A stretch of DNA of 14,748 nt from Bdellovibrionota bacterium FG-1 (GTDB taxonomy: Bacteria; Bdellovibrionota; UBA1018): NCBI GenBank assembly GCA_051382295.1, contig JBBCAW010000116.1, positions 1-14,748 on the forward strand. Direction: 5' to 3'. The notes under the pieces were generated by a model. It searched no databases and was not told the origin of the DNA. It was given only the letters and a program-made list of their open reading frames with translations. A program made the translations under genes and the position numbers. Each line of letters begins with the position of its first letter. Position 1 is the stretch's first letter. Shown here piece after piece: positions 63 through 14,748 of the stretch.

Positions 63-272
63 GTGGATGTTTTGACCCACTCGTTTTCACGAAGAGCCAA
101 AAAAGAAGAGTATGGGGTGCGAAGGTTTTCAAAGTCTATTAAGAGGCACTCCGGCTTGGAGGCTTCGGATTTTAGGGGCCAACTCCTCGCAGATTTTTCC
201 AAATTTACCGGGGAGGCGCCCTTGCATGACGACCTTTCGCTGGTCGTGTGTAAGTTCCCAGGCCTGGCCTAA
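63..272 (+). pseudogene. C-terminal fragment of a PP2C/SpoIIE (RsbU-like) Ser/Thr phosphatase domain
   Basis: EEYGVRRF...LLADFSKFTGEAPLHDDLSLVVCK matches the end of SpoIIE-type phosphatases (GEEFG..RL....F.G.....DDxTxxV). The frame is closed by TAA at 39-41, and I see no upstream TDG metal-binding motif in any + frame, so it appears N-terminally truncated. Its stop overlaps the stop of the convergent barrel gene (269-272). Confidence 0.6.
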
Positions 273-916
273 AATCCGAGCGTGATCCCGGCGAATCCTT
301 GGATCGGCTTGAGGTTCATGGACGCGCTATAAAGAAATTCGTATTTGCCTCCGAGGAGAAAATTCACGCTGCTCTGGCTGGCAAAAATATAATAGGCCGC
401 TCCCCCAAAGCCCGTGAACGGCACGATCGAGGAGGAGCTGTTGAAAAAGAACTGCGTGCCATTGAGTTCAAGGCGTAAGCCGCCTGGGTTGAGATCGCGG
501 CCGCGAAACACTTCTTTTTCGTCTAAAAAAATGGACCGATCATTTTGTATAAAGGTTCCGGTGATGGCGAGAACCGCTTTGAGCTCAAGCGCCGTGTAGA
601 TGGCGACGACCGAGGAGGGTTGAAAAGCAAATCTCACGTTTCCGCCTAGGCTTAACCAGGAGGAGGTGGCGTGCGAAAAGCCGACACTGGGTGCGAGTCC
701 CGTCAAGTGTTTTCCCGCTTTTATGATGCTGACCCAGCCCAATTGAAGGAGCGCTTGACTGTTCCGGGGTTCAGTTTGTTCACGGATTTCCGTCTTGGCT
801 GCATCGGTCGACTCTTCTTTGAGCGTTTCAGCAGCGGAGGCCGCTTCCAGTCCGCCGAGAACGCCAAGAAATCTAAGGAGCAGGAACGGCTTAAGCGGCT
901 TTTTTCGGGGTCTCAA
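269..916 (-). CDS. Putative small outer-membrane beta-barrel protein (~215 aa)
   Basis: Probable TTG start at 916 with AGGAG (930-926) 9 nt upstream, in frame with the 976 ORF. It has a basic N-terminus, a hydrophobic stretch and an ASA-AE signal peptidase site. Alternating beta-strand patterns (LSLGGNVRFAF, VNFLLGGKYEFLY) and a C-terminal GFAGITLGF ending in Phe fit a BAM beta-signal. Confidence 0.7.
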   Translation of the reverse strand: MRPRKKPLKPFLLLRFLGVLGGLEAASAAETLKEESTDAAKTEIREQTEPRNSQALLQLGWVSIIKAGKHLTGLAPSVGFSHATSSWLSLGGNVRFAFQPSSVVAIYTALELKAVLAITGTFIQNDRSIFLDEKEVFRGRDLNPGGLRLELNGTQFFFNSSSSIVPFTGFGGAAYYIFASQSSVNFLLGGKYEFLYSASMNLKPIQGFAGITLGF

Positions 917-2525
917 GTTTAGGTGCTCCTGTGAGGGCCGCTCGCAATTGTTGAAGGGTTTGTTCGTGGATCGCATTCATGATCGGGTGATCGCGCTCCG
1001 GAGTCAGAGACGAGGTATAGCCTTGGAGCATTTCGACCTTCTTTGGAGGCATGTGTTTTTGGAGTTGTTCGAGCACCGTTTTGGGCGCCAGCCAGACCTG
1101 GGCCAGTTCTTTTGCGGAATACTCCTTCAGTACTTGCTCAATTTGAGTCGGTTGGAGACGTAAGAGCCAGCCGAGCGATTGAACGCTCTCAAGTACATCC
1201 ATCGTCAAGTTGGGGAGATTAAGCAGTTCCTGCTCCTCTTCAACCGTTTTGAGTTTCAGCACGGTTTTTCGTTTCATCGCGCGCAAGGCGCTGGCGGCCA
1301 CCTTCGAGAAATCCGGCAGCGCGACGCCCGCTTTCGGGGCTTGCCGGTCAAATTCAATGCGCTCGCGCACCGAGAGTTGCAGCGCTTCGGATCTGAGTTT
1401 GGGAAACTGTTTAAGGAGGTGCGGCGTTTGTCGCGTGAGTTCGGTCAGTTTTTGATTGGAGAGATGGTGGATTTCGAAGGGTGCAAGATAGTAGGGTTCG
1501 TTTTCGACGCCAAGGTCTGCGGGCATGAGGGTGACAATGTAGGAAAGGTAATCTTTAAGAAACGGCAGGGTGGTGATCAGGCTTTTTCGTTTTCCTAGCG
1601 GAATCTCCTTCCAGATAAAAGCCGCGTAGGTGTCCTGCTCGGCCCAATAACAATCAGCCAGCAGGGCCTTAAGGCCTTCTTCTGGGAAGGCTTCGAAGTT
1701 TCGGAGTTGCAGCTCGGCTTGGGCTCCGCCGCCTTCTGTCCCGCCCGAACTTTCGGCGGTGGCTTTTTGCTCTGCAGAAGCTTCACCGCGGCCCTTGCTC
1801 TTTTCAAGCGCGGAGGAAAGCTGTTCGGTAGCGCGCTCGACCGACGCCGTTAGGCGTGCGATCCCCTTGCGCCGTAAGAACCCGGAGAGAATCATGGAAA
1901 AGACAAAAAAGGCGAGAAGACTTAAACCAGAGGCTAACATTATGCGCGGCGATTTGAGGAGCGGATCAAGCATTGCAAGACGGGGATCATCAAAGGTGTT
2001 AGCGGGGGAGGCTTCGGGTTTTGTGGGGTCGGCCTGCGCAGACGCGGGAGATCTATTTTTTTGGTCTCGATCGTTTTTTGCGAGGGTTTTTGCCTCTTCG
2101 TTTTCGTCAATCGTTTTTGAAAGCGCGAAGTCGCTCGGGATTTTTTGTAAGGTGATTTCAGGTTTGACGCCGTAGCTTTTTGTGAATTCCGTAATGAGTT
2201 GCAGCCCGGCGTCGGAGAACTTCCCGCTCTTGGTCAGAAGGGTGACTTGAAGTTTTTGAATTCGAATGCGGCCGCTGGCATCCTCTTTGTTGAGGTCGCG
2301 CAAAACAAAAGGAGTCATGGGGAGCGTGCTCTTCGCGGTTTGGGGCGTAACTCGTACATAGAAGAGCGAATAGGCGTCGGCCCCTTTGATGATGGGCGTG
2401 AGCCGCACTTCAATCTCGCGTTCAAGATCCAGGACGCTGCGCCCGGCCTCGGCGTAACTTGGGGTCACCGAGAAACCGAGAAGCGAGAGCGCGAAGGAAA
2501 AGGTTAAAAGACGACGACAAAACAT
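891..2525 (-). CDS. Membrane-anchored FliG-C-domain protein; probable FliF(RBM3)-TM-FliG-like fusion, 544 aa
   Basis: Sec signal (SYA-EA); periplasmic aa ~32-133 resembling FliF RBM3; TM aa ~195-217 followed by RRK; degenerate FliG-M-like repeat (aa ~277-321); FliG-C-like aa ~427-531 (LLRLQPTQIEQVLKEYSAKELAQ...QKHMPPKKVEML vs consensus L..LDDRSIQ.VLREV....LA.AL.....NMSKRAAEML). AAGGAGG upstream, with a TAATG overlap with the motB-like stop. Confidence 0.7.
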   Translation of the reverse strand: MFCRRLLTFSFALSLLGFSVTPSYAEAGRSVLDLEREIEVRLTPIIKGADAYSLFYVRVTPQTAKSTLPMTPFVLRDLNKEDASGRIRIQKLQVTLLTKSGKFSDAGLQLITEFTKSYGVKPEITLQKIPSDFALSKTIDENEEAKTLAKNDRDQKNRSPASAQADPTKPEASPANTFDDPRLAMLDPLLKSPRIMLASGLSLLAFFVFSMILSGFLRRKGIARLTASVERATEQLSSALEKSKGRGEASAEQKATAESSGGTEGGGAQAELQLRNFEAFPEEGLKALLADCYWAEQDTYAAFIWKEIPLGKRKSLITTLPFLKDYLSYIVTLMPADLGVENEPYYLAPFEIHHLSNQKLTELTRQTPHLLKQFPKLRSEALQLSVRERIEFDRQAPKAGVALPDFSKVAASALRAMKRKTVLKLKTVEEEQELLNLPNLTMDVLESVQSLGWLLRLQPTQIEQVLKEYSAKELAQVWLAPKTVLEQLQKHMPPKKVEMLQGYTSSLTPERDHPIMNAIHEQTLQQLRAALTGAPKLETPKKAA

Positions 2526-3277
2526 TACTCTTTAGCCTCCTTGCTCTTGCGCGCGGAGATTCTCACACTCAAGGATCGTGTACTGCGGGCGTATTCGCCA
2601 CTGCCTTGGGCCGAGATGAATCGGGGATCAAAGCCATTAGACATGGCAAATTCCATCGCCTTCGTGGCCCGTAAGCTTGAGAGGACGAAGTTGGAGTCCA
2701 GCACTTTGGTGTCCCGAATCGTCTTATGCGAGATCGGGACCGCGTCGGAGTGCCCGATGAAAGTGAGTTCGATTTCGTTTCGCTGCGGATGGACCAGCAT
2801 CAGGATTCTCAAAACACTCGCGCGGGCTGCTTTATTGAGGTCATAACTGCCTTCGCGATAAAAGTTGTTTTTGAAGTTTACATATACGCCGGGTTCCACC
2901 GAATCACGGGAGACACTGAGGGATGGGTCTTGAATTTTGAGGGCGAGCGAATCGAAAGCTTGCATCTTAATCGCCAGGAGGTTTCGTTCGACGACTTCTT
3001 CGTCGACCTCTTCTTGGATTGGTTCTTGAATTTTTTCTTTGGGCGCGGTGACGGCCGTGGGTCGAGCTTTTTGCGCGAGCGAGGACATGACATCGACGTT
3101 ATCTCGCATCTCAAAATAGATGACGAAAAAGCTCATGAGCACCATGAGCAAGTCAGAGTAGGAAATGGCCCACATGAACTGCATGGGATCTTCAGCCAAG
3201 GCACCGCTTTCTGACGCATGCAGTGGTTCTTCGTGGGCGGAGGTTTTGTGGGGGCGTTTGTTACGCCGCAGTATCAT
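2525..3277 (-). CDS. motB: MotB-family stator subunit with OmpA-like peptidoglycan-binding domain (~250 aa)
   Basis: TM WAISYSDLLMVLMSFFVIYF carries the conserved ion-binding Asp (W.v.YaD..t.Lm.FF). The OmpA-like domain has GHSDAVPI...SNFVLSSLRA...G.DPRFISAQGSGE. Probable ATG at 3277 with GGAGG 5 nt upstream, overlapping the end of motA. Confidence 0.85.
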   Translation of the reverse strand: MILRRNKRPHKTSAHEEPLHASESGALAEDPMQFMWAISYSDLLMVLMSFFVIYFEMRDNVDVMSSLAQKARPTAVTAPKEKIQEPIQEEVDEEVVERNLLAIKMQAFDSLALKIQDPSLSVSRDSVEPGVYVNFKNNFYREGSYDLNKAARASVLRILMLVHPQRNEIELTFIGHSDAVPISHKTIRDTKVLDSNFVLSSLRATKAMEFAMSNGFDPRFISAQGSGEYARSTRSLSVRISARKSKEAKE

Positions 3278-3968
3278 GCAGCCCTCCTGCAATAACTTGT
3301 TGCGGCTCGCCGCTGTTAATCATCAAAACCACGCGATAGATATGTTCGTTGTCTTTGGCTCTTTTTAAGTGCCGCACATGCAGGCGGTCGGAAAGCGGCA
3401 TCAGGATTACGTTGGCTAAAATTAGACCATAAAATGTGGCCGTCAACGCGAGTGCGAGGTTGGGGCCGATCTGAGAGCGGCTCTCAGGCGTGAGAGATGA
3501 AAACAAGGAGACTAGGCCGATGACTGTTCCGGTCATGCCGAGGGCGGGGGGATATTTGGCAAGGTTTCGCAATGACGCCACGGACTGTTCGCTCGTGCCG
3601 TTGAGTTCACGAAGACGTTGGGACACCATCAGGACAAAAAGATCTTCATCTAAACCTTGTTCCCAGAGTCCCTGCGCGTAGGTGACAAGCGCGTGCGGAT
3701 GCGGGAGTTTTGAATCTCGATTTTTACTTAAGGCAATGAGCTCGGTGTCCAGGGTTCGTTGTGAGGGCACGGATTTGAGGAGTTCAAGAAGTGATTTGAA
3801 GAGGTTGATGATTTCGCCGCTAGGGACGGAGAGCCAAAGAACGCCCACCGTGCCGACTCCCACAAGGGTTAATGAATGCATGTTGACGAGCGTGGCGGCC
3901 TGGGTCCCTGAGAGCGCGTAAACCATGACTCCAACTAAAATGATGATTCCGATGGGTAAGCTGAGCAT
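3261..3968 (-). CDS. motA: MotA/PomA-family stator subunit (235 aa)
   Basis: N-terminal TM pair with NMHSLTLVGVGT (cf. N.pS.liV.gGT), TM3 YPPALGMTGTVIGL, TM4 IGPNLALALTATFYGLILANVILMPLSDRL with the conserved Pro residues, and C-terminal I.SGEP. Directly upstream of a MotB homologue. Confidence 0.88.
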   Translation of the reverse strand: MLSLPIGIIILVGVMVYALSGTQAATLVNMHSLTLVGVGTVGVLWLSVPSGEIINLFKSLLELLKSVPSQRTLDTELIALSKNRDSKLPHPHALVTYAQGLWEQGLDEDLFVLMVSQRLRELNGTSEQSVASLRNLAKYPPALGMTGTVIGLVSLFSSLTPESRSQIGPNLALALTATFYGLILANVILMPLSDRLHVRHLKRAKDNEHIYRVVLMINSGEPQQVIAGGLHDTAA

Positions 3969-3971
3969 GGT

Positions 3972-4625
3972 TTAGTTGTCGCCTCCTGTAGGTTTCCGGG
4001 TCTTGGGTTGTGAACTCACGGATCTTCCTGCTGCGCCTACCGCACGGTCTAACGTCCCCCCAAGGGTGCGATAGAGTTCTGCGGCGGTTTTGTTATCCGG
4101 GTCTGTGCGGAGTGCGTCTTGAAGAATGGTACGCGCCTGTCGCTGGTCGCCCATGAGTAGGTAGCAATTCGCGCGGAGATATTTGAAAGCGCTCACGTTG
4201 GGATAATCTTTTTCGGCGATTTCGAGTTTGGTGAGGGCGATTTTCTCTTGGCGGGTCACGATCAACGTTTGCGCTTCAATGATCAGGTTGACGATCGAGT
4301 TGACGACCGTGGTGGATTGTTTTTCAAACCCTGCCCCGCCCCAGGTTTCAATGGCGCGGAGAGTGAGTTGTATTTTTTGGGGGGGGGCGGCCGCAGGAAT
4401 CATGAGCACACTCACATACCCCGGAGATTCAACCAGCAGGGGATCACCTTTGACGTTAACGATTGCACCTTTTTTGAGGGTGACAGGTTTTTGACGTCCG
4501 ATCTTCACGACAGAATCTTGACCCAGTTCGAGTGTTCGTCCAGGCGAGAAGAGGGAGCATCCCGAGCCGAGTGCCGAGAAAACCGGCAACAGAATAATGA
4601 TGAGCCTACCGAGAGAGGGTTTCAC
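3972..4625 (-). CDS. TPR-repeat lipoprotein (217 aa)
   Basis: GTG start, lipobox LGSG-C at residue 23, beta-rich N-terminal part, then TPR-like helices (YPNVSAFKYLRANCYLLMGDQRQARTILQDALRTDPDNKTA). Ends 3 nt before the motA ATG. Confidence 0.8.
   Translation of the reverse strand: MKPSLGRLIIILLPVFSALGSGCSLFSPGRTLELGQDSVVKIGRQKPVTLKKGAIVNVKGDPLLVESPGYVSVLMIPAAAPPQKIQLTLRAIETWGGAGFEKQSTTVVNSIVNLIIEAQTLIVTRQEKIALTKLEIAEKDYPNVSAFKYLRANCYLLMGDQRQARTILQDALRTDPDNKTAAELYRTLGGTLDRAVGAAGRSVSSQPKTRKPTGGDN
4379..4387. repeat. G9 homopolymer tract (C9 followed by A6 on the coding strand) inside the TPR lipoprotein gene
   Basis: Direct read: tattttttgg ggggggg c at 4371-4388; it encodes A-P-P-Q-K in frame. 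Confidence 0.9.
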
Positions 4626-4669
4626 ATAGGGTTCATCGGAGGATGGGGGGAGAATCTAAAATATATTTT

Positions 4670-4692
4670 AAAAAGGGATCCGACCCCTTTTT
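4670..4692 (-). terminator. Candidate weak, possibly bidirectional, intrinsic terminator between the adhesin genes and the motor genes
   Basis: The minus strand reads AAAAAGGGGTCGGATCCCTTTTT: an 8-bp inverted repeat (AAAAAGGG/CCCTTTTT) with a short GC core and a U5 tail, 40 nt after the stop of the 1694-aa gene. Confidence 0.45.
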
Positions 4693-4732
4693 GATGCTGG
4701 GTGCGTCAGAAAAGGTCGGCGAGTCCGATCGC

Positions 4733-7700
4733 TTAAGGGCACGAACCCGACGTGCCTATATTAAACGTCCCTCGTGTAGCATTAAAGTTGGTGCAGACGT
4801 CACTATCCGTGAGCGCGCGATTGTAAACGCGAACTTGGCCGATGGAGCCGTAAAGATATTCGCCAGTATATGGTTTCACCCCCAAAAATAACGGCGTGGC
4901 TGAAACTGCCGCGCCCGGGGCGGAGCCTCGAGTGGCTTTTGTACCATTGACGTAAAGATACATATCTCCTGCTGTCCAGACCGCTACGATGTGTTGCCAG
5001 GTTGCATTCGTGGCGGTGACTCCTGGACACCAAAACGCGGCGCCGGTGGTCATACAAAACTTTGCGGTCCCGCCCTCGATTGAAAGATTGCGGTCGTACG
5101 TAGAATCTTCAGCAGAGAGAATTGTGACTCTTCCTGCTTGATTAGTCTGCTGTACCCAAACTTCCCAGCTGGTAGCGGGCATTTCGGCGGGGCTGACATA
5201 AAGGCTTGTTTGCAGATACTGATATTGGGGATTGCCAGTGAAGGTCAATCGATATGGATCTGCAGGAACCCCAGTCCCTCGCCATCCTGTGGTGCTGGAG
5301 GCGCATTTTTGGCCGTAGAATCTCGATCCATCTTGTACAGCGTTACTCACGTGTTGAATGTCCCACCAGACTTCGCTGTCGTAGTTACATCCTGCCGCAT
5401 AGGGCGCCTCCGTGCTGCTGGCGCGTGCGGCATCGAGTTCCAAAACAGGGGCCGTTTGGGCCGCAACAATCAGGGTCACTGCCGCGCTGGTCAGGCCGGC
5501 GCTTGTGGCGGATAAGATCGCAGTTTCGGTTCCCGCGTCCTTATAATAGATTGGAGTATTAATATATTGGTTGGTTGTATAATTTAAAGAAGAGATGCTC
5601 ACCGCGCATGAAGAATCCGAATAGAAACTGCCACCAGTGGCTGCGCCACTAAGTGTGATCGTTCGGTCTGTGCCGGCAATGGTGGCATCGCCGTAGGTAT
5701 TGAGTCCTTTGAGGGTCAAAGAAACGCAAGTGGAGTTGCTTCGAGGGGTCGCGACATTTCCTTGGGTGAGGCTAAGGATTTGGGCCGCTAACCCCACTCG
5801 ATCAGAGATGCAGCGGAACCCCCGCGCCGAGCTTTGAGCAGCTGATATTGCGGGGGTACGCGCGCTCCACCGGCCATCAAAGCCGTTAATTCCTGGGCCC
5901 CAGGCCGCGCCCAGGGCCGCAGAATACCTATACCATGCAGCCCAATGCTCAATGGTATCGATAGAGTCGCGGCCAAAAACGTCCACCACGCCAGGAGTCG
6001 TGGTATACCTGATGGCGTCAAAAGCCAGATAATCTGCATTTGTTACACATTGGCCAATGGGGACGTTGAACCATCCGTTAGCCCACCCATAAACAGAAAA
6101 AGTCGGGAAGCATGTGGTATTAAGTAACGACGGGGCTCCGTCATTAATAGAAATGTTATAAAAATCCGTGTTGGTAGGGTCGATGTTGCTTAAGAGGCCG
6201 CGCCTAGCCGTACCAAAGCCGTCTGTTTGTTTGTAAACTTGATCCGAAGTCCATTCTTCGATGTTTCCCACCGCGTCTTGGATACCATACCTAGAGATAC
6301 AATTTTTGGTGGCGAGGCTCCCCGTGCGTACGGCACCGCCGGCGACGTTACTTGTAGGAATCGTTTCAATATTTGTAGGGAGTAGGCCGAGCGCATTTGC
6401 CGTTAGATCTGAGGGGTAGTCCGAATTTTCATAAGTGAGTCCATAGCCTGCATTATTGTTACAATAATAATTGTCGTAGAGCGGGTATAGGGTCGTCACG
6501 GGGTTGCCGCCCGCATGAGACTGCTCCATTGCATTAATCCCAGGGTACGACCAGATGGAAACGGGCCAGACGCTGGCGGCCAGGTTTCGGCGAATACTGG
6601 GGAGTTTGTATTCGTTAGTGGTGGTGTTTCTCGCTACGCAAAAATTATGAGCAGTCTGCACTGCCACATTAACCAAAGGAGGGAGTCCTGGTTTATTTGA
6701 AGCCATCACCGCGCGCTCGGCTGCGGTCAGGCTTGCGCTATCTTGTCTGAGCCAAATGTTTCCTGCTCGCTTGTAGTAGCAGTATTGATTTGAGCGATCA
6801 TAATAAACATCCCCCGTGTTCCCCACGCCCGCCCCCGGCGCCACACCGGCTAACTTTGAGATTCGCCCAGAGGTGAAGTTACAACCCGCTTCAAAACGAT
6901 CGACAAAATGACTGCTCCCGATATCATAATAATAAGGATTAGCCATGTCAGTGCTGGAGGTAGGCCAGCTTGAGATACCTGCATCGTTTACGGCGGTTGG
7001 GGCTCGGTACGGGCAACGATAATTGTGTTCACGATCCACGGTGCGGGCCATGGTAGTACAAGTGTCGTAGTTCGCAAGCCAACGATGCACAAGGCTCATG
7101 TTCGCTGGAGGAACTGGCACAACGACTTCAGAGTCTGCGGCCGCAGTGGAGATCGCGGTGCTGCCTGCAATGGGCCTAATCACATAATAGTAAGTGACTC
7201 CTGCGGTGACGGTGGAGTCGGTATAAGTTCGCACTCCCGGATTTGTTTCGGCGAGCGGTGACGAAAAATTCTGTCCTCCGGAGCTTGTTGCCCTAAAAAT
7301 TCGATATCCTTGTAGACTTGAATTGGTTACGGTCATCGCGTTCCATTTTAGCTTAATGTAGCTACCATGCTCCATGGCTCGAATCGGGTCACCCACGGGC
7401 ACGATGTCCGCGCTCACTCTCGGTCCGAAGGCGCTGATCTCCGTCCAGCCATTATGAGTTGCGACTACGGCGAGGGTCGCGCTTTGAACTTCTTTGGTGT
7501 TGGAGTCTGGGATGTTATCACTTCTCAAGAGATTCACTCTGAGTCTGAAGGTCGTACTGGGTGTGAGATTGGTGAGGGTTACCGTACTGGCGGGGGCGAT
7601 GACGGTGGCAATAACTTCGAGGGAGGCGCCTGTAACATTGGTAATGATATAGGAGTTTGCGCCGGCGGCGCTGGTCCAGTTCACTTTGATCGTGTCGCCT

Positions 7701-9817
7701 GTTTCGTTACTGATTGAGACAATGCCTTTGAAAAAGACTTGGGTGGGTCCTGTGAGCCAATCACTGTTCAAAGATCCTCGCTGCGCACGTACCCGAAAAC
7801 GATAAACGTTGCCTTCGGTCAGGCCGCTCCATAAATACGTCGATTGGTTTGAGGCGCTGATCGTAGCACTATCTGCGCTGTCGGGAGCCGTAAAGGTCGC
7901 TGCGCACGCGGCGCCGGTGCAGCGTTGAACTTCAAAGCTCGTTTCACTGGTGGACTGATCAACCCAGTTGAGCTGAAAACCACCACCTCCGGTCACGGTA
8001 TCGGTGGTTTGAGACCAGGCAGTGGGAGCAGAAGGATTTGCGGTTCCCGTAAGGGCGACGCCCAATTGAAAAGGCGTATTGCCAGCGGCAAGACCATAGC
8101 TCAGAGTGAAACTGGCACTTTGCGCTTCGGGCAGAACGGGCGCAAACGCAAAGGTGATCGTGCAGGTCTGTGCCGGCAAGAGTTCCGCAGCACAGGTTTG
8201 AGAGTTAATGGCAAAGTGGGGACTGGAGCCCGCAATAGATCCGAGGGCGGCGATACTTTGGGAATTGTTTGTAACGGTGACCGCCGAAAGAGCTTGGGCA
8301 CCCACACCGACGTTCCCCATGTTCAGTGAAGTCGAATCAAGACTCAACATAGGCTCACCTGCGAAGTTTACGAAAACTCTAAATGTAGCAGAAGAAGATG
8401 AAGGCGTGCTCACTCCTTGTTCGGTGGCCGTAACTCTGAAACCAAAGAACTTGTTTCCATCTTGGTAACGAGGCGTCCAAGCAAAAACTCCGCTTGAAGC
8501 GCCAAAACTAAATACCTTGGCGGGAACGCCTGAGCAATTTTGTGAATAGGTTCCGGGCAGGAGTGGTTCGGTGGCCGCGGATTCGTAGCCACAAGTATAA
8601 ACGATCGCGTCGTCGTCTTCATCCACGTCTCCCAGATTGGTTCCGCTCGCAGAGGAGAGGAGTGAAAAATCTTTGTTGACCTCTGTGGCGCCCGCAATCA
8701 CCGCCGTCCCGGATGGATAAACTGTAGTGAGGCTCGAGGAGGGGGTGAGGTGCGGTGGGCGATTGGTATCCGCAATTTGAAACTCGATCGTCCGGGAGAG
8801 GGTCGATCCATTGATGCTACAGCGAACTTCAGCGGACGCCGTCCAATCTGAATGTCCGGCTCGATAAGGGACGGTGCAGTCTAGTTTTCCTGAAGAAACG
8901 CTGCAGCCGGCTCCGGCTCCGTCCAGCGTGCCCCAGAGGCTGTCACTTTGCGCCACGAGACTAAAGGCAGCGGTGTTGCCTACAGTGTCCGAACAATCCA
9001 GCGGGATAGAAACGGTTTCTCCTTCAGATAAGAATTGAGTTTCCACAGAGGAAAACACCCCTATGGAATCCGTAAAAAAAGTTTTGTCGTTGGTGTTCGT
9101 GTCCATTCCACCATTTTCATCTTCGACCCGAACCCGATAGGTATAAGCGGTTGCAGGCGTCAGGCCCGTGAGCGAGATATTGGTTGCATCTTCGGTGAGC
9201 GTTCTTAGGGGAAGTGCAGCGCCTAGCGTATTAATTTGGTAAACGATAAAGGCCTTGGCGCCCGTGGGGGCGGTCCAGCGAATTCTCGCGGAACTCGAGG
9301 TGATCTGATCAAAGGCGTCGATCCCCGCAAACGGCACGAGACCCTCGCCCTGGCCTGTGAGTTCTAAGGTGATCGTGTAGTTTGTCGTTTTATCCGCCGA
9401 TTTTCCGTAAATGACCGTAAAGAGGTTAGAGGTGTTTCCACTCTTTGTAGGTGCAAAAGTGACTTGCGCTTTGCACGTGGTCCCGGCGACCAGGGCGAGT
9501 GGTTGAATGGGGCAGTCGTGCGAAACGATTTCAAAAGCTGAATCCGTGTTCAAAATGCTTGAGACATAGACATCCTCGCTGCTTTCGTTATGGACTGTGA
9601 TGGTTTTTTCCGCAGAGGCGGCTTTGAGGGATTGGATCCCGAAATTTCGGACCTCAGCCGTGGCGGTCAGGCTCAGATACTGCGAAGAACCCGATAGAAC
9701 CTCAAGAAACTCGTCCATTTGTACGGGTTCGCAGGCACATAATCCAAGCGCACTGATCAGGGTTAGGCTCGCGAGGCTTCGAGATGAGCATGAGGTTATT
9801 CGGCGTCGAGCACGCAT
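4733..9817 (-). CDS. Giant surface lipoprotein/adhesin, 1694 aa: ASH-Ig, FN3, cadherin/He_PIG-like Ig, ASH-Ig, 3xFN3, FGE-sulfatase/CLec-fold domain, Ig-like, LamG
   Basis: Lipobox LCA-C (residue 29). ASH motifs NFG...TITVHN...C...C..QVTFAPT...LTGQG; FN3 motifs W...LTGLTPATAYTYRVR; DTNRPP; SGVFAWTP. CLec/FGE motifs PANM...VDRFE...PLVNV...AHNFC...KLPS...SRYGIQDAVGNIEEW...RGFRC. C-terminal LamG (SWEVWV...WQHIVAVW...LYVNG...GSIGQVRVYNRALT). AGAGG 6 nt before the ATG; overlaps the upstream paralog by 22 nt. Confidence 0.85.
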   Translation of the reverse strand: MRARRRITSCSSRSLASLTLISALGLCACEPVQMDEFLEVLSGSSQYLSLTATAEVRNFGIQSLKAASAEKTITVHNESSEDVYVSSILNTDSAFEIVSHDCPIQPLALVAGTTCKAQVTFAPTKSGNTSNLFTVIYGKSADKTTNYTITLELTGQGEGLVPFAGIDAFDQITSSSARIRWTAPTGAKAFIVYQINTLGAALPLRTLTEDATNISLTGLTPATAYTYRVRVEDENGGMDTNTNDKTFFTDSIGVFSSVETQFLSEGETVSIPLDCSDTVGNTAAFSLVAQSDSLWGTLDGAGAGCSVSSGKLDCTVPYRAGHSDWTASAEVRCSINGSTLSRTIEFQIADTNRPPHLTPSSSLTTVYPSGTAVIAGATEVNKDFSLLSSASGTNLGDVDEDDDAIVYTCGYESAATEPLLPGTYSQNCSGVPAKVFSFGASSGVFAWTPRYQDGNKFFGFRVTATEQGVSTPSSSSATFRVFVNFAGEPMLSLDSTSLNMGNVGVGAQALSAVTVTNNSQSIAALGSIAGSSPHFAINSQTCAAELLPAQTCTITFAFAPVLPEAQSASFTLSYGLAAGNTPFQLGVALTGTANPSAPTAWSQTTDTVTGGGGFQLNWVDQSTSETSFEVQRCTGAACAATFTAPDSADSATISASNQSTYLWSGLTEGNVYRFRVRAQRGSLNSDWLTGPTQVFFKGIVSISNETGDTIKVNWTSAAGANSYIITNVTGASLEVIATVIAPASTVTLTNLTPSTTFRLRVNLLRSDNIPDSNTKEVQSATLAVVATHNGWTEISAFGPRVSADIVPVGDPIRAMEHGSYIKLKWNAMTVTNSSLQGYRIFRATSSGGQNFSSPLAETNPGVRTYTDSTVTAGVTYYYVIRPIAGSTAISTAAADSEVVVPVPPANMSLVHRWLANYDTCTTMARTVDREHNYRCPYRAPTAVNDAGISSWPTSSTDMANPYYYDIGSSHFVDRFEAGCNFTSGRISKLAGVAPGAGVGNTGDVYYDRSNQYCYYKRAGNIWLRQDSASLTAAERAVMASNKPGLPPLVNVAVQTAHNFCVARNTTTNEYKLPSIRRNLAASVWPVSIWSYPGINAMEQSHAGGNPVTTLYPLYDNYYCNNNAGYGLTYENSDYPSDLTANALGLLPTNIETIPTSNVAGGAVRTGSLATKNCISRYGIQDAVGNIEEWTSDQVYKQTDGFGTARRGLLSNIDPTNTDFYNISINDGAPSLLNTTCFPTFSVYGWANGWFNVPIGQCVTNADYLAFDAIRYTTTPGVVDVFGRDSIDTIEHWAAWYRYSAALGAAWGPGINGFDGRWSARTPAISAAQSSARGFRCISDRVGLAAQILSLTQGNVATPRSNSTCVSLTLKGLNTYGDATIAGTDRTITLSGAATGGSFYSDSSCAVSISSLNYTTNQYINTPIYYKDAGTETAILSATSAGLTSAAVTLIVAAQTAPVLELDAARASSTEAPYAAGCNYDSEVWWDIQHVSNAVQDGSRFYGQKCASSTTGWRGTGVPADPYRLTFTGNPQYQYLQTSLYVSPAEMPATSWEVWVQQTNQAGRVTILSAEDSTYDRNLSIEGGTAKFCMTTGAAFWCPGVTATNATWQHIVAVWTAGDMYLYVNGTKATRGSAPGAAVSATPLFLGVKPYTGEYLYGSIGQVRVYNRALTDSDVCTNFNATRGTFNIGTSGSCP

Positions 9818-12800
9818 CTGAATCCTCTCTGGGCTGAAAATATAGTATCAACTCCGGTTGATGTGGCGGCCACAGACCATCGCCCGGCCGTTGTGCCGTT
9901 GTGAAGGTAGTATCCGCCCCCTCCTTCAAGTTCTCCTGAGGCTGCAAACCAAGTCCAGAAGCTCAGGTTATCGCCATGAAACCTGGCGGGATCAAACGAT
10001 CCCACGGCTCCCGATGCATTCACTGGGATGCTATCGAGTCCGGCAGGATCTGTCGTTTCGACCGGAAAGCCAATAGCAGGAAGAAACCGTGCAATGGTCG
10101 CAAAGGTCTTGATGCCGCTGCCGTTGGTAGCGCCCCCTATGTTTCCGAGTGAGGTTCCGTCTGTCTTCTTATCTGTGAGATCGGAGCTGATACGTTCCGC
10201 TCCGTTTCTGTAGTTTGTGGTGAAGGTAATGTCGCCATCGTTATAGCCTCCTACAGTTTTGATGTAAGAATCCGCAACTTGATCAGGCATGTTTCCAACC
10301 GCATCTTGCACCCCATAACGAGAGACACAGTTTCGAGTCGCGTAGCTCCCCGTGCGGACGGCCTTCCATCCATTGTCATTATAGCTCATTGTTGGTCCCG
10401 CCACTGAGCCAGGGGGGAGCGCGGCGCTCCCGGTACCCGGTAAGGCGTCCATCTTGTTAATGTCGGTTGTCGAACTGGGATACTCGGCGTCTTCAAAGGT
10501 CAGACCATGGCCGGCGGCATAAGAAGTATGGCAACGGCCCGTGGTGTTTAGGCTTGTTCCTGCAGTGTATTCGAGGGCAGTGATTTGAGCATCACTCAAA
10601 GAACTATCCCACGCCCCATAAACCACGTGCTCACGACGACTCGGGAGTCGTTTGGTCCCAAAGGGGGTGATGTTTGTCGAGGCGCAAAGCTGGGCCGACG
10701 GAGTCGAAAAAATTCTTGGAATCGGCGGCAGTCCTGGCGCATTTGAATAGACGAGCGCCTGCTCGGTATCCGAAAGAGTGGCGTTATCCGCTAATTTCCA
10801 AATTCCAGCTGATTTAATCCAGCAGGCTGCCGCGTAGCGGTCATAATACACATCACCCGTATTTGCGGCCGCGAGTACGGCTGCGGGCGGAGAGTGTGGT
10901 AGTGAACCGGCGGTGACGACGGAGTCCGGCACTCGCCCAATGCACCCGTAGGCATTACCACATTTGTTTCCACTTGCTGAATAAGTATAGTTACAACCTC
11001 CTTCGAAACGATCGACAAAAAGGTGTTTTGAAAAATCATAATAATAAGTCCCGTTGTCATTCACTGACGTCGGACCCGTGTAGGGACATCGATAGTTATT
11101 TGCGCGATCCGAAGTTCTCCCCATGAGACCGCAAATCTCCTGATTGGCCATCCAGCGATGGACGAGCGCCATATTGTCGGGTGGAACCATGACTTTGATT
11201 TCGCTGTCGGCGGCGAGGGTCGCGACTGCTGCTCCCGCAATCACGGGGCGCACCACATAATAGTAGGTTGTTTTCCCGGTCACGGTCGTGTCGGTGTAGG
11301 TCGTGGTCGATCCATTGACCGTCGTGCCCACCGGGGCGGCGGCGAAGTCCTGTCCGCTAGAAGAAGTCGCGCGATAGATCGCGTAGTATTGGAGCGAACC
11401 TCCGCCGACGGTCATCGCGTTCCAGGTTAAGGTCACGCGCGCCGAAGCGTCGAGGGCTCGAAGCGGATCATCGCTAGGAACCTGTACTGCGGCCACTCTC
11501 GCGCCCAAGGCTTGCACATGCGCCCAGCCCAGGTGGACTGCGGTAGCGTCGCTCGTGGTGGTGTTGCGATCATCGACATTCGTGTCGCCGATGCCATCGC
11601 CTCGCACCACATTGACGCGGAACTTGTAAAGCGTAAGCGCGGTCAGTCCCGTGAGCTGCACGGAACTTGCGGGGCCACTGACGTTGGAGATGACGACCGG
11701 AGTTCCCGTGATGACATTGGTGACGACGTAAGTGCCCGCATTTGCAATGGAGGTCCAGTTCAGCGTGACGCTATCGCTGATGGGGTTGGAGACGGTGGTG
11801 ATTCCGCCGAAGAGAACTTGCGTATCATCGGTGACCCAGGCGCTAGAAGTAGCGCCTCGAACCGCGCGGATTCTAAATCGATAGACGTTGCCTTCGGTCA
11901 AGCCCGCCCAGCCGACCGAAGTGGTGCTTGCCGTAGAGATTGTGAGCGTGGTGGCGGCGGTGAAAACAGTGGCGCAGGCCGCGCCGTCGCAGCGCTGGAT
12001 CTCCAGTCCACTTTCGACACTCGAGTTGTCGCTCCAGGAGAGCGTAAATGAAGTTCCCCCTGCGTCGGCAACCGCGTGGAAGTTTGAAGGCGCAGCCGGG
12101 CTTGTGTAGCCTATTAATGGTAACGAAGAGGTCGCATCCGTGACGCCGGTCTCAGAGCCATAAGTGAGCACCCCGGAACCGCTTTGCGATTCGCTGGTGG
12201 TCGGGGCGTATTGCAGGGTGATTTGGCAAGTTTGGGCGGGAAGCAGTGAACCGTTGCAGTCATGGGATACGAGAGAGAAGGGGGTGGCGATGCCGCTGAG
12301 TGCGCCCGCGATCACCGCGACGGTTTGCGAAGCGTTTGTGACGGTAGTGGAGAGTTGCGCGGTCGCGCCTGAGGCCACAGTTCCAAAATTCAAATTGCTC
12401 GGAGAGAAGGTGAGCATGGGAGACCCGGCGAAATTCACTTTTGCGATGAAGCTCGTTGAGGCACTGAGTGCGGGCGCGACGCCATTTTCCGTGGCGGTGA
12501 TTTGAAACGCAAAGTGTTTGTTGCCGTCCGCGTACCTCGGCTGCCAAATGAATGCCCCCGTGCTGGTATTAAAGGAGTAACTTGCGTTGGGCACTCCCGC
12601 ACAATCGGTAACGAAGGCTCCTTGCACATCCCCTTGGGCCGTGCCTGGTTGATATTTACACGAGTAGGTCAAGGAGTCGCCATCTTCATCCGTATCGCCG
12701 AGGGATGTATAGGTCGGGGCTGCGGTGACGCCATTGAAGTCGAGTGAAATCGTGCTGAGTCCGGCAAGAATTGCGGAGTTTGTCGGATATGAAGCGAGAT

Positions 12801-13878
12801 AACTAGCAACCGGGGCGAGCCGGGGTGCGCGATTGGAGTCGTTGAGTGTGAGGGAAACTGTTTGCTTGAGAGTCGAGCCGTTGATCAGACATTGGACTTC
12901 GACTTGCGCGCTCCAAGCGTCGTGGCTTGATTTATAGGGTACGACACATTGGAGTTGATAGCTATTTTCGATCGTGCAGCCTGCGCCGCCCGCCGCACCG
13001 GCAACCGAGTCGGACTGCTGAAGAATGCTCAAGGTAGAGGAATTAAATTCGGCATCGTGGCAATCCAGGTTGGTAAGCAGGGTGGCGCCCTCGGTGCCCC
13101 CGCTGAGATTGGGGGGTTCAAAAACGCCCAAGTCGTCAGTAGTGGCTTCGACTACTTTGGTGTTTTCATCCATGCCCCCGTAGTTGTCGTAGCCGTTCAC
13201 TCTAAATCGGTAGGGGGTTGAGGGCGAGAGTCCCGTGATCGTGATGCCCGTAGCGCTGCCTTCGGCCGTGGCGACGGGGAGTAAACTTTCGTCGCTCTCG
13301 ACGCGGTACACGACGAAGTTGCTGGCGTTTTCGACGGCGTTCCACTTGAGTTGCAGTGAAGTGGTGGTCACTTCTATGATTCGATCGATCCCGTCAAAAA
13401 CAATGGGGCTCGCCCCGACGCCCGTGAGTACCACGGAGGCGCTCGAATTACGTTCGGGGATGGAGGTGCCGAAGCTGACTACAATGGAAGTGCTCAGGTT
13501 GCCTGCCTCAGTGGGTTTGAAAACAACATTGAGGTCACAGTCTTTTTCCGGCGGAAACGGATTCGGCGAGGTGGGGCAGGTGGAACTTGTGATTTCAAAG
13601 TGGCTGCTCTCTTGCGTGATGGGTGAGAAGTACAAGTTGAAACCGCTGGCATTGGATAAATTGATGCGTTTCTCTGTCGTCGTCGAGCCCAGGAGCGTGA
13701 TGCCGAAATCCCGGTCAGAGAGTTGAAAGACGAGTGACTCATTGCCTTTGTCGGATGGCACCATGACGGTTGCGGCCTGTACGATTTCATCGACACCTGA
13801 ATCTGAATTACAGCCCAAGCCCATGCTGAGCAGTGCAAGCAGGATAAGGCAATGAGTGATGGAGTGCCGGGTGCCCAT
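9796..13878 (-). CDS. Giant surface lipoprotein/adhesin, 1360 aa: same Ig/FN3 stalk, ending in an FGE-sulfatase/CLec-fold domain
   Basis: Lipobox GLG-C (residue 23). Collinear with the 1694-aa protein domain by domain (DFG...NLSN...C...VVFKPT; FDGI...W...GLSPSTPYRFRV; DSNRAP; LNFG; GLTEGNVYRFR; VPPDNMALVHRWMAN; SRYGVQDAVGN). Ends RGFRCVLDAE, the typical terminal strand of FGE/Mtd-like CLec domains. Confidence 0.85.
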   Translation of the reverse strand: MGTRHSITHCLILLALLSMGLGCNSDSGVDEIVQAATVMVPSDKGNESLVFQLSDRDFGITLLGSTTTEKRINLSNASGFNLYFSPITQESSHFEITSSTCPTSPNPFPPEKDCDLNVVFKPTEAGNLSTSIVVSFGTSIPERNSSASVVLTGVGASPIVFDGIDRIIEVTTTSLQLKWNAVENASNFVVYRVESDESLLPVATAEGSATGITITGLSPSTPYRFRVNGYDNYGGMDENTKVVEATTDDLGVFEPPNLSGGTEGATLLTNLDCHDAEFNSSTLSILQQSDSVAGAAGGAGCTIENSYQLQCVVPYKSSHDAWSAQVEVQCLINGSTLKQTVSLTLNDSNRAPRLAPVASYLASYPTNSAILAGLSTISLDFNGVTAAPTYTSLGDTDEDGDSLTYSCKYQPGTAQGDVQGAFVTDCAGVPNASYSFNTSTGAFIWQPRYADGNKHFAFQITATENGVAPALSASTSFIAKVNFAGSPMLTFSPSNLNFGTVASGATAQLSTTVTNASQTVAVIAGALSGIATPFSLVSHDCNGSLLPAQTCQITLQYAPTTSESQSGSGVLTYGSETGVTDATSSLPLIGYTSPAAPSNFHAVADAGGTSFTLSWSDNSSVESGLEIQRCDGAACATVFTAATTLTISTASTTSVGWAGLTEGNVYRFRIRAVRGATSSAWVTDDTQVLFGGITTVSNPISDSVTLNWTSIANAGTYVVTNVITGTPVVISNVSGPASSVQLTGLTALTLYKFRVNVVRGDGIGDTNVDDRNTTTSDATAVHLGWAHVQALGARVAAVQVPSDDPLRALDASARVTLTWNAMTVGGGSLQYYAIYRATSSSGQDFAAAPVGTTVNGSTTTYTDTTVTGKTTYYYVVRPVIAGAAVATLAADSEIKVMVPPDNMALVHRWMANQEICGLMGRTSDRANNYRCPYTGPTSVNDNGTYYYDFSKHLFVDRFEGGCNYTYSASGNKCGNAYGCIGRVPDSVVTAGSLPHSPPAAVLAAANTGDVYYDRYAAACWIKSAGIWKLADNATLSDTEQALVYSNAPGLPPIPRIFSTPSAQLCASTNITPFGTKRLPSRREHVVYGAWDSSLSDAQITALEYTAGTSLNTTGRCHTSYAAGHGLTFEDAEYPSSTTDINKMDALPGTGSAALPPGSVAGPTMSYNDNGWKAVRTGSYATRNCVSRYGVQDAVGNMPDQVADSYIKTVGGYNDGDITFTTNYRNGAERISSDLTDKKTDGTSLGNIGGATNGSGIKTFATIARFLPAIGFPVETTDPAGLDSIPVNASGAVGSFDPARFHGDNLSFWTWFAASGELEGGGGYYLHNGTTAGRWSVAATSTGVDTIFSAQRGFRCVLDAE

Positions 13879-14177: not shown

Positions 14178-14623
14178 TCACGCAGGAACGTCGGTCCCAC
14201 CGGTAGCAATTTGCAGTTCATCGAGGAACCACCGTGGCGCAGGGGCGCGCGGTATTTTAAGCGTGACCTGTGTGCCGTGCTCAAGCTCGGAGGTGATTGA
14301 GAGTGAGCCTCCACATTTTTCTACAGCCTCACGGGCGTTGGATAAACCAATCCCTGAGCCGCCCTTCTTGCCAAATGTTACGCCCCGCTGGCCAAGCTGT
14401 GGCAGCAGGTCGTGTGAAATTCCACACCCGGTATCAGCCACCGTGATTTGAACTTGCTCGCCCGAAGCGTGGCAGGTGACTGTGACTTGTCCTCGGCCAT
14501 CGGGGAGTGATTCCACCGCATTATTGAGCAGATTTGAAAGGGCGATGCGGAGATCAGTCGCTCTGACCGAAGCGAACACAGCGTAGTTTAGTGCATCCTG
14601 CTCTGCGATCACTTCAACGCCTA
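14178..14623 (-). pseudogene. Orphan HATPase_c domain of a sensor histidine kinase (N-terminally truncated)
   Basis: N box (LSNLLNNAVES), G1 box (VADTGCGI), F/G2 region (GVTFGKKGGSGIGLS) and GTQVTLKIP are present. There is no HisKA/H-box or sensor region: the frame is closed by TAG immediately upstream of 14654, and the upstream DNA reads as an unrelated protein. Confidence 0.7.
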
Positions 14624-14748
14624 GACACCTCCAAGCCGATGCATTCGCAGTCATCTAAACCAATCGCCGAGCCTTTCCGGGCCAGCGCCTCGAGAGTAAC
14701 GCGAAGTACGACGAGAGCCTTGCGGGTTCCGATGTCGATGGAGCAGTC
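14614..14748 (-). mobile_element. Truncated frame entering from the window edge, resembling a DDE/RNase H-like transposase-type protein
   Basis: Open from 14748: DCSIDIGTRKALVVLRVTLEALARKGSAIGLDDCECIGLEVSRR*. It recalls, from memory only, a transposase-like family with D.S.dIG..KaLVvL followed by DcecIgL. It stops abruptly where the kinase-like sequence begins. Confidence 0.35.

Follow-up and report, generated by a model that had tools for sequence, protein, structure and literature searches.

A candidate ion-driven envelope motor with a FliG-like rotor, encoded beside giant lipoproteins in Bdellovibrionota bacterium FG-1

The window analysed here is the whole of a 14.7-kb contig (JBBCAW010000116.1, 14,748 nucleotides) of Bdellovibrionota bacterium FG-1, whose genome measures 4.44 Mb and is 98% complete. 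Its positions 269-13878 are filled, according to open reading frame (ORF) calling, by seven minus-strand ORFs: two giant lipoproteins, followed by a five-gene unit that encodes a TPR lipoprotein, a MotA/MotB-like stator pair, a rotor-like protein of 544 amino acids (aa) and an outer-membrane barrel (Table 1). At the likeliest starts the six junctions are, in gene order, -22, +107, +3, -17, -1 and -26 nt, exactly as described in an earlier reading of the same DNA made without database searches (hereafter, the sequence-only reading), which had likewise counted seven genes on one strand. Alternative starts lie further upstream for MotB (TTG at 3292, instead of ATG at 3277) and for the barrel (ATG at 976). 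The domain calls of that reading were borne out by Pfam, in some cases just under the cut-off, for MotA (PF01618, E 2e-17), for the plug (E 1e-4) and OmpA (E 1e-5) domains of MotB, both narrowly short of the cut-offs, for the TPR domain of the 217-aa lipoprotein (E 3e-5, short of the cut-off) and for the FN3/Ig stalks, and by a structure model for the barrel. It had also seen no other flagellar gene, and the Pfam/NCBIfam scan of eight ORFs found no export gate, rod, hook, filament or FliM/N gene in the window. Promoter and terminator scans gave counts at the level of chance (7 versus 8.9 and 20 versus 16.8, respectively).

Table 1. Features of the adhesin and motor-like gene cluster, in gene order
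Feature	Position	Strand	Remarks
Giant lipoprotein B, 1360 aa, putative adhesin	9796..13878	-	Cys23; ASH-type Ig + FN3 stalk; C-terminal FGE-like domain
Motif V-D-E-I-V, residues 29-33 of lipoprotein B	13780..13794	-	Post-cysteine; candidate targeting/docking signal
Giant lipoprotein A, 1694 aa, putative adhesin	4733..9817	-	Cys27 or Cys29; ASH-Ig + FN3 stalk; FGE-like; C-terminal LamG/ConA-like 1548-1675
Motif M-D-E-F-L, residues 34-38 of lipoprotein A	9704..9718	-	Post-cysteine
TPR lipoprotein, 217 aa	3972..4625	-	Cys23; TPR helices after a probable small beta domain
MotA-like stator subunit, 235 aa	3261..3968	-	Thr148/Thr178 kept; shortened torque segment; family-specific Trp102
MotB-like subunit, 250 aa from ATG	2525..3277	-	Membrane Asp47 (TTG numbering), plug region, OmpA-type wall-binding domain
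Rotor-like protein, 544 aa	891..2525	-	Signal peptide 1-25; FliF-RBM3-like 28-131; membrane helix ~193-219; FliG-like 275-532
Outer-membrane barrel, eight-stranded OmpA/NspA-type + extra beta-hairpin	269..916	-	Model; TTG start with AGGAG

The rotor-like protein matched no Pfam or NCBIfam family, and ten cluster look-ups returned either 'hypothetical protein' or no annotation. An exhaustive profile search collected 381 clusters at 50% identity (360 at E<=1e-10 and 303 at E<=1e-30), against the 2 proteins retrieved by word-index protein searches; relatives with taxon titles belong to Bdellovibrionales, Pseudobdellovibrionaceae and Bacteriovoracaceae (4/5 loci). The structure model built from 148 sequences (mean pLDDT 84, pTM 0.57) has a signal peptide, an alpha/beta domain with an inserted hairpin at residues 28-131, a membrane helix at 193-219 and helical domains at 282-532. 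Residues 447-531 superpose on FliG-C with Z 8.8 and a root mean square deviation (rmsd) of 2.5 over 81 aligned residues (4fhr_B), the five top rows all being FliG or C-ring chains, and a second FliG match, 3ajc, gave Z 9.1, rmsd 4.1 and 96 aligned in the model comparison. Residues 28-130 align with FliF RBM3 at Z 7.1-7.2 (83-90 aligned), and a profile match to FliF reached E 0.0035 over 32 columns only. The top 10 rows of Foldseek comprise nine FliF or flagellar C-ring/FliG chains and one injectisome ring model. Profile-profile comparison with 32 FliG sequences was colinear over FliG 75-304 at E 4e-4, where four controls gave 0.1-0.36, and the Atlas neighbours of the protein carry FliG_C, FliG_M, MgtE_N or YscJ_FliF_C domains. 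Taken together, these several weak-to-moderate lines make the predicted likeness to FliG-C well supported, the one to FliG-M less well supported and the one to FliF moderate. In the rotor proteins the EHPQ motif of FliG, the FliM site, is replaced by a D/E/H-P-Y-Y pattern, so that a FliM switch is presumably lacking.

The stator pair retains the residues expected of an ion channel anchored to the cell wall. The membrane Asp of MotB is kept in 44/45 sequences, as are the wall-binding motifs GHxD and NxxLSxxRA, and Thr148, Thr176 and Thr178 of MotA are present in 41/41, including the equivalents of the ion-binding T158/T186 of PomA. By sequence, the closest matches of MotA are PomA/MotA. In a tree of 107 rows the MotAs of this cassette group together (SH-aLRT 93); a long branch with full support divides them, on the MotA side, from ExbB/TolQ. 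An outgroup-free tree of 37 of these rows gave a support of 100 for the cassette group, 96 for the group with the five flagellar references and 89 for a third group. Within the limits of small sampling and an unreliable root, the stator appears to lie outside the group of the five reference flagellar stators, in keeping with the sequence-only reading. The root of a mixture-model tree with outgroups fell inside the cassette group, on a zero-length branch, and was rejected as a likely long-branch artefact, for which reason no direction of descent is claimed. Several stators of the third group adjoin FliG-domain fusions of other kinds, which are less diverged and come with TPR proteins.

No Pfam family matched the barrel protein, whose model (pLDDT 87) is eight-stranded and of the OmpA/NspA type, with Z 19.4 and rmsd 3.1 over 145 residues aligned to NspA. 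Barrels of eight strands are too narrow for the passage of folded domains. An extra hairpin at residues 144-160, after strand 4, would by strand count face the periplasm. The Atlas held no usable match for residues 24-105 of the TPR protein, some relatives of which are devoid of the lipid cysteine, and a three-chain prediction of the rotor RBM domain, the TPR protein and the barrel scored 0.00, which speaks neither for nor against contact. In several loci a lipoprotein of 460-500 aa lies just 5' of the TPR gene (L071:8680-10188, L232:5911-7308, L231, L239 and L244); the two of these that were scanned have a DsbA-like Thioredoxin_4 domain, perhaps for disulfides of cysteine-rich adhesins. Variants of the unit include a tandem TPR-rotor-barrel duplication (L243) and two consecutive barrels (L247), and further variants among L243, L247, L075 and L250 place the barrel on the far side of a giant adhesin.

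The unit recurs beyond this genome. The rotor profile matched 39/401 genomes of the phylum at E<=0.001 and 29/401 at E<1e-30 (counts of this kind include kin and are not independent), and the two weak matches inspected proved to be a canonical FliG in one case and another type of fusion in the other; further genome samples, overlapping the 401, had the rotor in 28/251, 7/38 and 10/127. Strong barrel matches (E<1e-30) occurred in 25/401 genomes, all of them within the 29 rotor carriers, and weak ones in 10 more. After removal of duplicates and of non-rotor control loci 57 loci were left, and the unit TPR-motA-motB-rotor-barrel is complete in 34 of them; 40 have motAB, 46 the barrel and 45 the TPR gene, many of the gaps being contig ends. 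A second full five-gene unit exists in this same genome (C55:7175-11608, locus L004); two further motAB pairs lie within 6 kb of it (L004 5573-7203 and 1100-2706), of which one belongs to the third stator group and the other is E. coli-like. A normal flagellum is encoded elsewhere in the genome, with FliG, FliF, FlhA and seven flagellin-domain matches on other contigs. Stand-alone short FliG-C proteins of about 150 aa were seen at C86:9200-9658 and C141:13707-14198, similar ones being present in most relatives checked, and other long FliG-domain fusions (560-790 aa), less diverged than the rotor of the window, accompany TPR proteins and mostly their own motAB in L210, L211 and L223-L226.

Lipoproteins A and B are paralogues (39% identity over 1340 aa). 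Pfam places FN3/ASH-Ig domains in both and LamG only in the 1694-aa protein, and finds no vWA domain in either. Their FGE-like (C-type-lectin-like) domain was recognised from a weak Pfam match (E 0.008) and two motifs; it had 0 sequence matches in the PDB, and the two giants were not among the matches listed when the genome was searched with the FGE family. The description of both as lectin-tipped is only partly borne out: it is solid, through LamG, for one protein, and its C-type-lectin part depends on that E-value and those motifs. A diversity-generating retroelement acting on the FGE-like tips was considered and rejected for now, no second DNA copy of the tips being found in the assembly, which has two reverse-transcriptase matches elsewhere. 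Four clustered lipoproteins of 820-870 aa at C78:56294-70882 (L220) share the FGE-like tip domain, with variable patches, and lack the motif described below. In 28 of the 57 loci (49%) a predicted lipoprotein of at least 700 aa is encoded no more than 1.7 kb away from the unit, versus 3.6% of random intervals, a comparison that misses truncated genes and takes its null from this one genome. Most of the 29 large neighbours scanned combine Ig-like, invasin, FN3 or GLUG stalks with LamG, NHL, Kelch, RCC1 or DUF5122 tips; the others include three unrelated enzymes, transporters or TPR proteins and one protein without a match.

These lipoproteins have in common a short motif, hydrophobic-Asp-x-hydrophobic-hydrophobic, 3-10 residues past the lipid cysteine. 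It is strict in 17/27 and loose in 22/27 of the unit-adjacent lipoproteins from which it was derived, and strict in 1/88 predicted lipoproteins of this genome; that sole match is an unlinked Ig/LamG lipoprotein of 2067 aa at C11:1459-7662 (L221), a possible client of the second unit. In held-out loci, counted by hand after one duplicate locus was dropped, the strict motif occurs in 8/10 adjacent giants versus 0/28 other predicted lipoproteins of the same loci, and it is found across unrelated stalk types (GLUG, Big and LamG types). It could serve machines of this class as a docking tag, or it may be a general feature of the adhesin family.

Among known systems, the closest comparison is the flagellar motor core (the FliF MS-ring, FliG and MotA5B2/PomA5B2), with which the unit shares the MotA/MotB channel residues, plug region and OmpA domain, the FliG-C fold, the colinear FliG-M/C match and a moderately RBM3-like periplasmic domain ahead of a membrane helix. 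Unlike that core, its rotor is one fused protein led by a signal peptide, with a single RBM; it has no export gate, rod, FliM/N or filament, its torque contacts are changed on both sides, and it has instead the eight-stranded barrel, the TPR protein and the giant lipoproteins. The unit thus resembles the flagellar rotor-stator core yet does not belong to it, as torque contacts and axial parts are missing. With the Agl-Glt machinery of Myxococcus and Bdellovibrio the unit shares an ion motor, envelope-spanning parts and barrels with a surface lipoprotein adhesin, in our case by gene linkage only, but Agl is a TolQR-like motor with TolA/TonB-like arms, whereas here there are a MotA-side stator, a MotB with an OmpA domain and a FliF/FliG-like transducer. 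The chlamydial FliF-FliG fusion is also natural, joins a shortened FliF to part of FliG and stands in a non-flagellar setting; it differs in having two membrane helices and FliG-M and in being discussed with the injectisome, and no stator, barrel or adhesin partner is named for it in the accessible text (PMC4768692). ExbBD-TonB, TolQR-TolA, ZorAB and GldLM of the type IX system are, as this stator is presumed to be, ion-driven pentamer-dimer assemblies working across the envelope (PMC9389320, PMC12204202), but partners resembling TonB/TolA or those of Zorya are missing from the unit. For the five core proteins PADLOC yielded two weak ZorB matches (E 0.002 and 0.012), with no ZorA or other Zor and nothing for MotA. 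Judged by its genes, the unit is not Agl-Glt, Ton, Tol or Zorya. As for the literature, a search aimed at the unit, with partial coverage, found no description of it, although supplementary neighbourhood tables (e.g., those of PMC12505986) could contain such loci; within the same coverage the chlamydial fusion (PMC4768692) was the only natural FliF-FliG fusion in print, the accessible parts of reviews on 5:2 motors and gliding name no FliG-type non-flagellar rotor (PMC9389320, PMC13104615, PMC12204202), and those of PMC1586193 and PMC13277936 have nothing on the unit.

The reading that we favor, and that we regard as evenly poised between right and wrong, is that the unit is a stand-alone ion-driven envelope motor acting on surface adhesins, for example during attachment to prey or surfaces. 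MotB would be fixed to the wall via its OmpA domain; ion flow at its Asp would turn the MotA pentamer, as in known 5:2 stators, and MotA would push the FliG-like part of the 544-aa protein through a rewired contact, this protein building a ring or arc via its FliF-like periplasmic domain. From gene order, a link between rotor and outer membrane might be provided by the TPR protein together with the barrel's periplasmic hairpin. Too narrow for a pore, the barrel would be a platform holding interchangeable giant lipoproteins by the motif near their lipid anchor, an idea prompted by the Glt outer-membrane barrels, which recruit and retain the lipoprotein adhesin CglB without exporting it (PMC9946355). 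The motor could then turn, move or tension the adhesins during attachment to prey or surfaces. The more specific proposal of a minimal five-protein, flagellum-independent rotary motor, made of a FliF-FliG-like ring and a co-evolved MotAB with a new type of contact, whose barrels dock exchangeable adhesins by a tag, is put forward tentatively, as an idea that could well be wrong.

Several results weigh against the motor reading. The FliG/FliF matches lie under the usual significance, the best Foldseek E being 6e-3 and none reaching <=0.001; a profile search of PDB sequences puts FliG-C first, but at E 0.06, and the middle part of the protein (275-420) alone gives E 0.14 against FliG. Of the proposed FliF/FliG-like fusion the predicted FliG-C fold (Z 8.8) stands, while the FliF likeness is only moderate, since its score (Z ~7) is tied with those of unrelated alpha/beta folds, namely ribosomal S3 (KH), CzrB and OsmC. 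The torque contacts of the flagellar motor are formed by R90 with D288-D289 and by E98 with R281 (PMC12505986). In the cassette the R90/E98-type charge segment of MotA measures 14-15 aa in 41/41 sequences versus 21 in PomA, with a gap at the E98/E96 column in 26/26; in the rotor proteins an acid occupies the D288/D289 positions in only 15/148, being absent in 133/148, but the R281-equivalent is K/R in 126/148 and the R297-equivalent R in 144/148. The canonical torque contacts are, as far as alignments tell, lost in both stator and rotor, with the ion-channel residues retained. It can be argued from this that the stator would be private to its rotor and unable to drive a flagellum; by the same token, one cannot take for granted that the known mechanism of torque applies here. 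A complete motAB pair is missing from 17/57 loci, some of them on contigs long enough for it; some units are truly TPR-rotor-barrel, and one such genome has a motAB pair of the same clade elsewhere. The second unit of this genome has no giant neighbour. All 29 carrier genomes tested are flagellated, with flagellins, FlhA and one canonical FliF away from the unit, and absence of a flagellum is therefore unusable as evidence of independence. In metagenome cases the motif was present in only 1/3, with two near misses (one duplicate dropped), which brings the pooled held-out cases to 9/13. The same N-terminal adhesin module also exists in genomes without a strong rotor match (62/401 at E<=1e-15); among such non-carrier proteins with a full module and a visible start the strict motif is found in 1/7, with near variants in most others, and a long FliG-C fusion from a different family is encoded in 4/9 of the non-carrier genomes checked. 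The sequence-only reading, correct in its expectation that the association would be found in other genomes, is thus partly supported, having missed the lost MotA-FliG charge contacts, the loci without motAB or adhesins and the flagellated carriers. What the present analysis adds is the matched contact loss in rotor and stator, the counted adhesin linkage and the post-cysteine motif.

Among the other explanations, an ion-powered export or display machine, in which the motor would power the transfer of the giant lipoproteins to the cell surface, with the post-cysteine motif as export signal, is unlikely: the modelled barrel is too narrow for folded domains, neither an export gate nor a large pore is a constant neighbour in the loci, and adhesins of the same family occur in genomes without a strong rotor match. 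What it would explain is the tight linkage of the unit to the giant lipoproteins and a motif common to unrelated stalks, and it has precedents in the short post-cysteine export signal of Bacteroidetes (PMC5080379) and in the ties of 5:2 motors to secretion, as in the type IX secretion system and SiiAB (PMC13104615, PMC12204202). Quite improbable as well is a non-rotating sensor or tether, with the FliF/FliG-like protein as a static scaffold and adhesin load gating the MotAB channel so as to signal contact. That both sides have lost the canonical torque contacts, that the EHPQ motif is replaced and that TPR-rotor-barrel units occur without adjacent motAB, one with a same-clade stator elsewhere in the genome, would all suit such a device, but the basic R281 and R297 positions and the FliG-C fold are kept, and the matched loss is as compatible with a private contact that co-evolved in the two partners as with no contact. 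Finally, the unit could be read as a surplus flagellar stator that has a FliF/FliG relic in decay at its side and adhesins as chance neighbours. This reading is already disfavoured and very improbable, for although every carrier tested is flagellated, the best MotA matches are PomA/MotA and Bdellovibrio has three stand-alone motAB pairs for one flagellum (PMC11323537), the stator falls outside the flagellar reference group and is without the segment needed to drive FliG, 381 clusters (360 at E<=1e-10) with invariant residues are not decay, and the linkage is fixed to barrel and TPR and, for the adhesins, far above random intervals.

In the portions of the literature examined, FliG-type rotors all turn a flagellum, and if the more specific proposal above is true this unit would be the first whose output is not flagellar, a novel device with which predatory bacteria move or handle prey, and a working model of a rotor-stator core that has neither export gate nor filament. 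A natural unit of only stator, fused rotor, TPR protein and barrel would put to the test how small a working rotor-stator pair can be and how torque can be passed on in the absence of the conserved charge pairs. It bears on whether such a core is older than the flagellum or was derived from it by reduction; the root of the trees is unreliable here. The linked adhesins and their short tag may point to a new way of anchoring surface lipoproteins in Bdellovibrio-like bacteria, and offer a direct assay of surface display, movement and prey attachment.

Two further coding stretches lie at the edges of the window. On the minus strand, 14178-14654 encodes a fragment of a histidine-kinase ATPase with an in-frame stop just upstream, whose protein is 93% identical to a copy on contig C153; it is either a pseudogene or a contig-end artefact. 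On the plus strand, 1-272 holds the end of a convergent gene that by eye resembles a SpoIIE/PP2C phosphatase, and a HAMP-SpoIIE gene is also found near the second unit.

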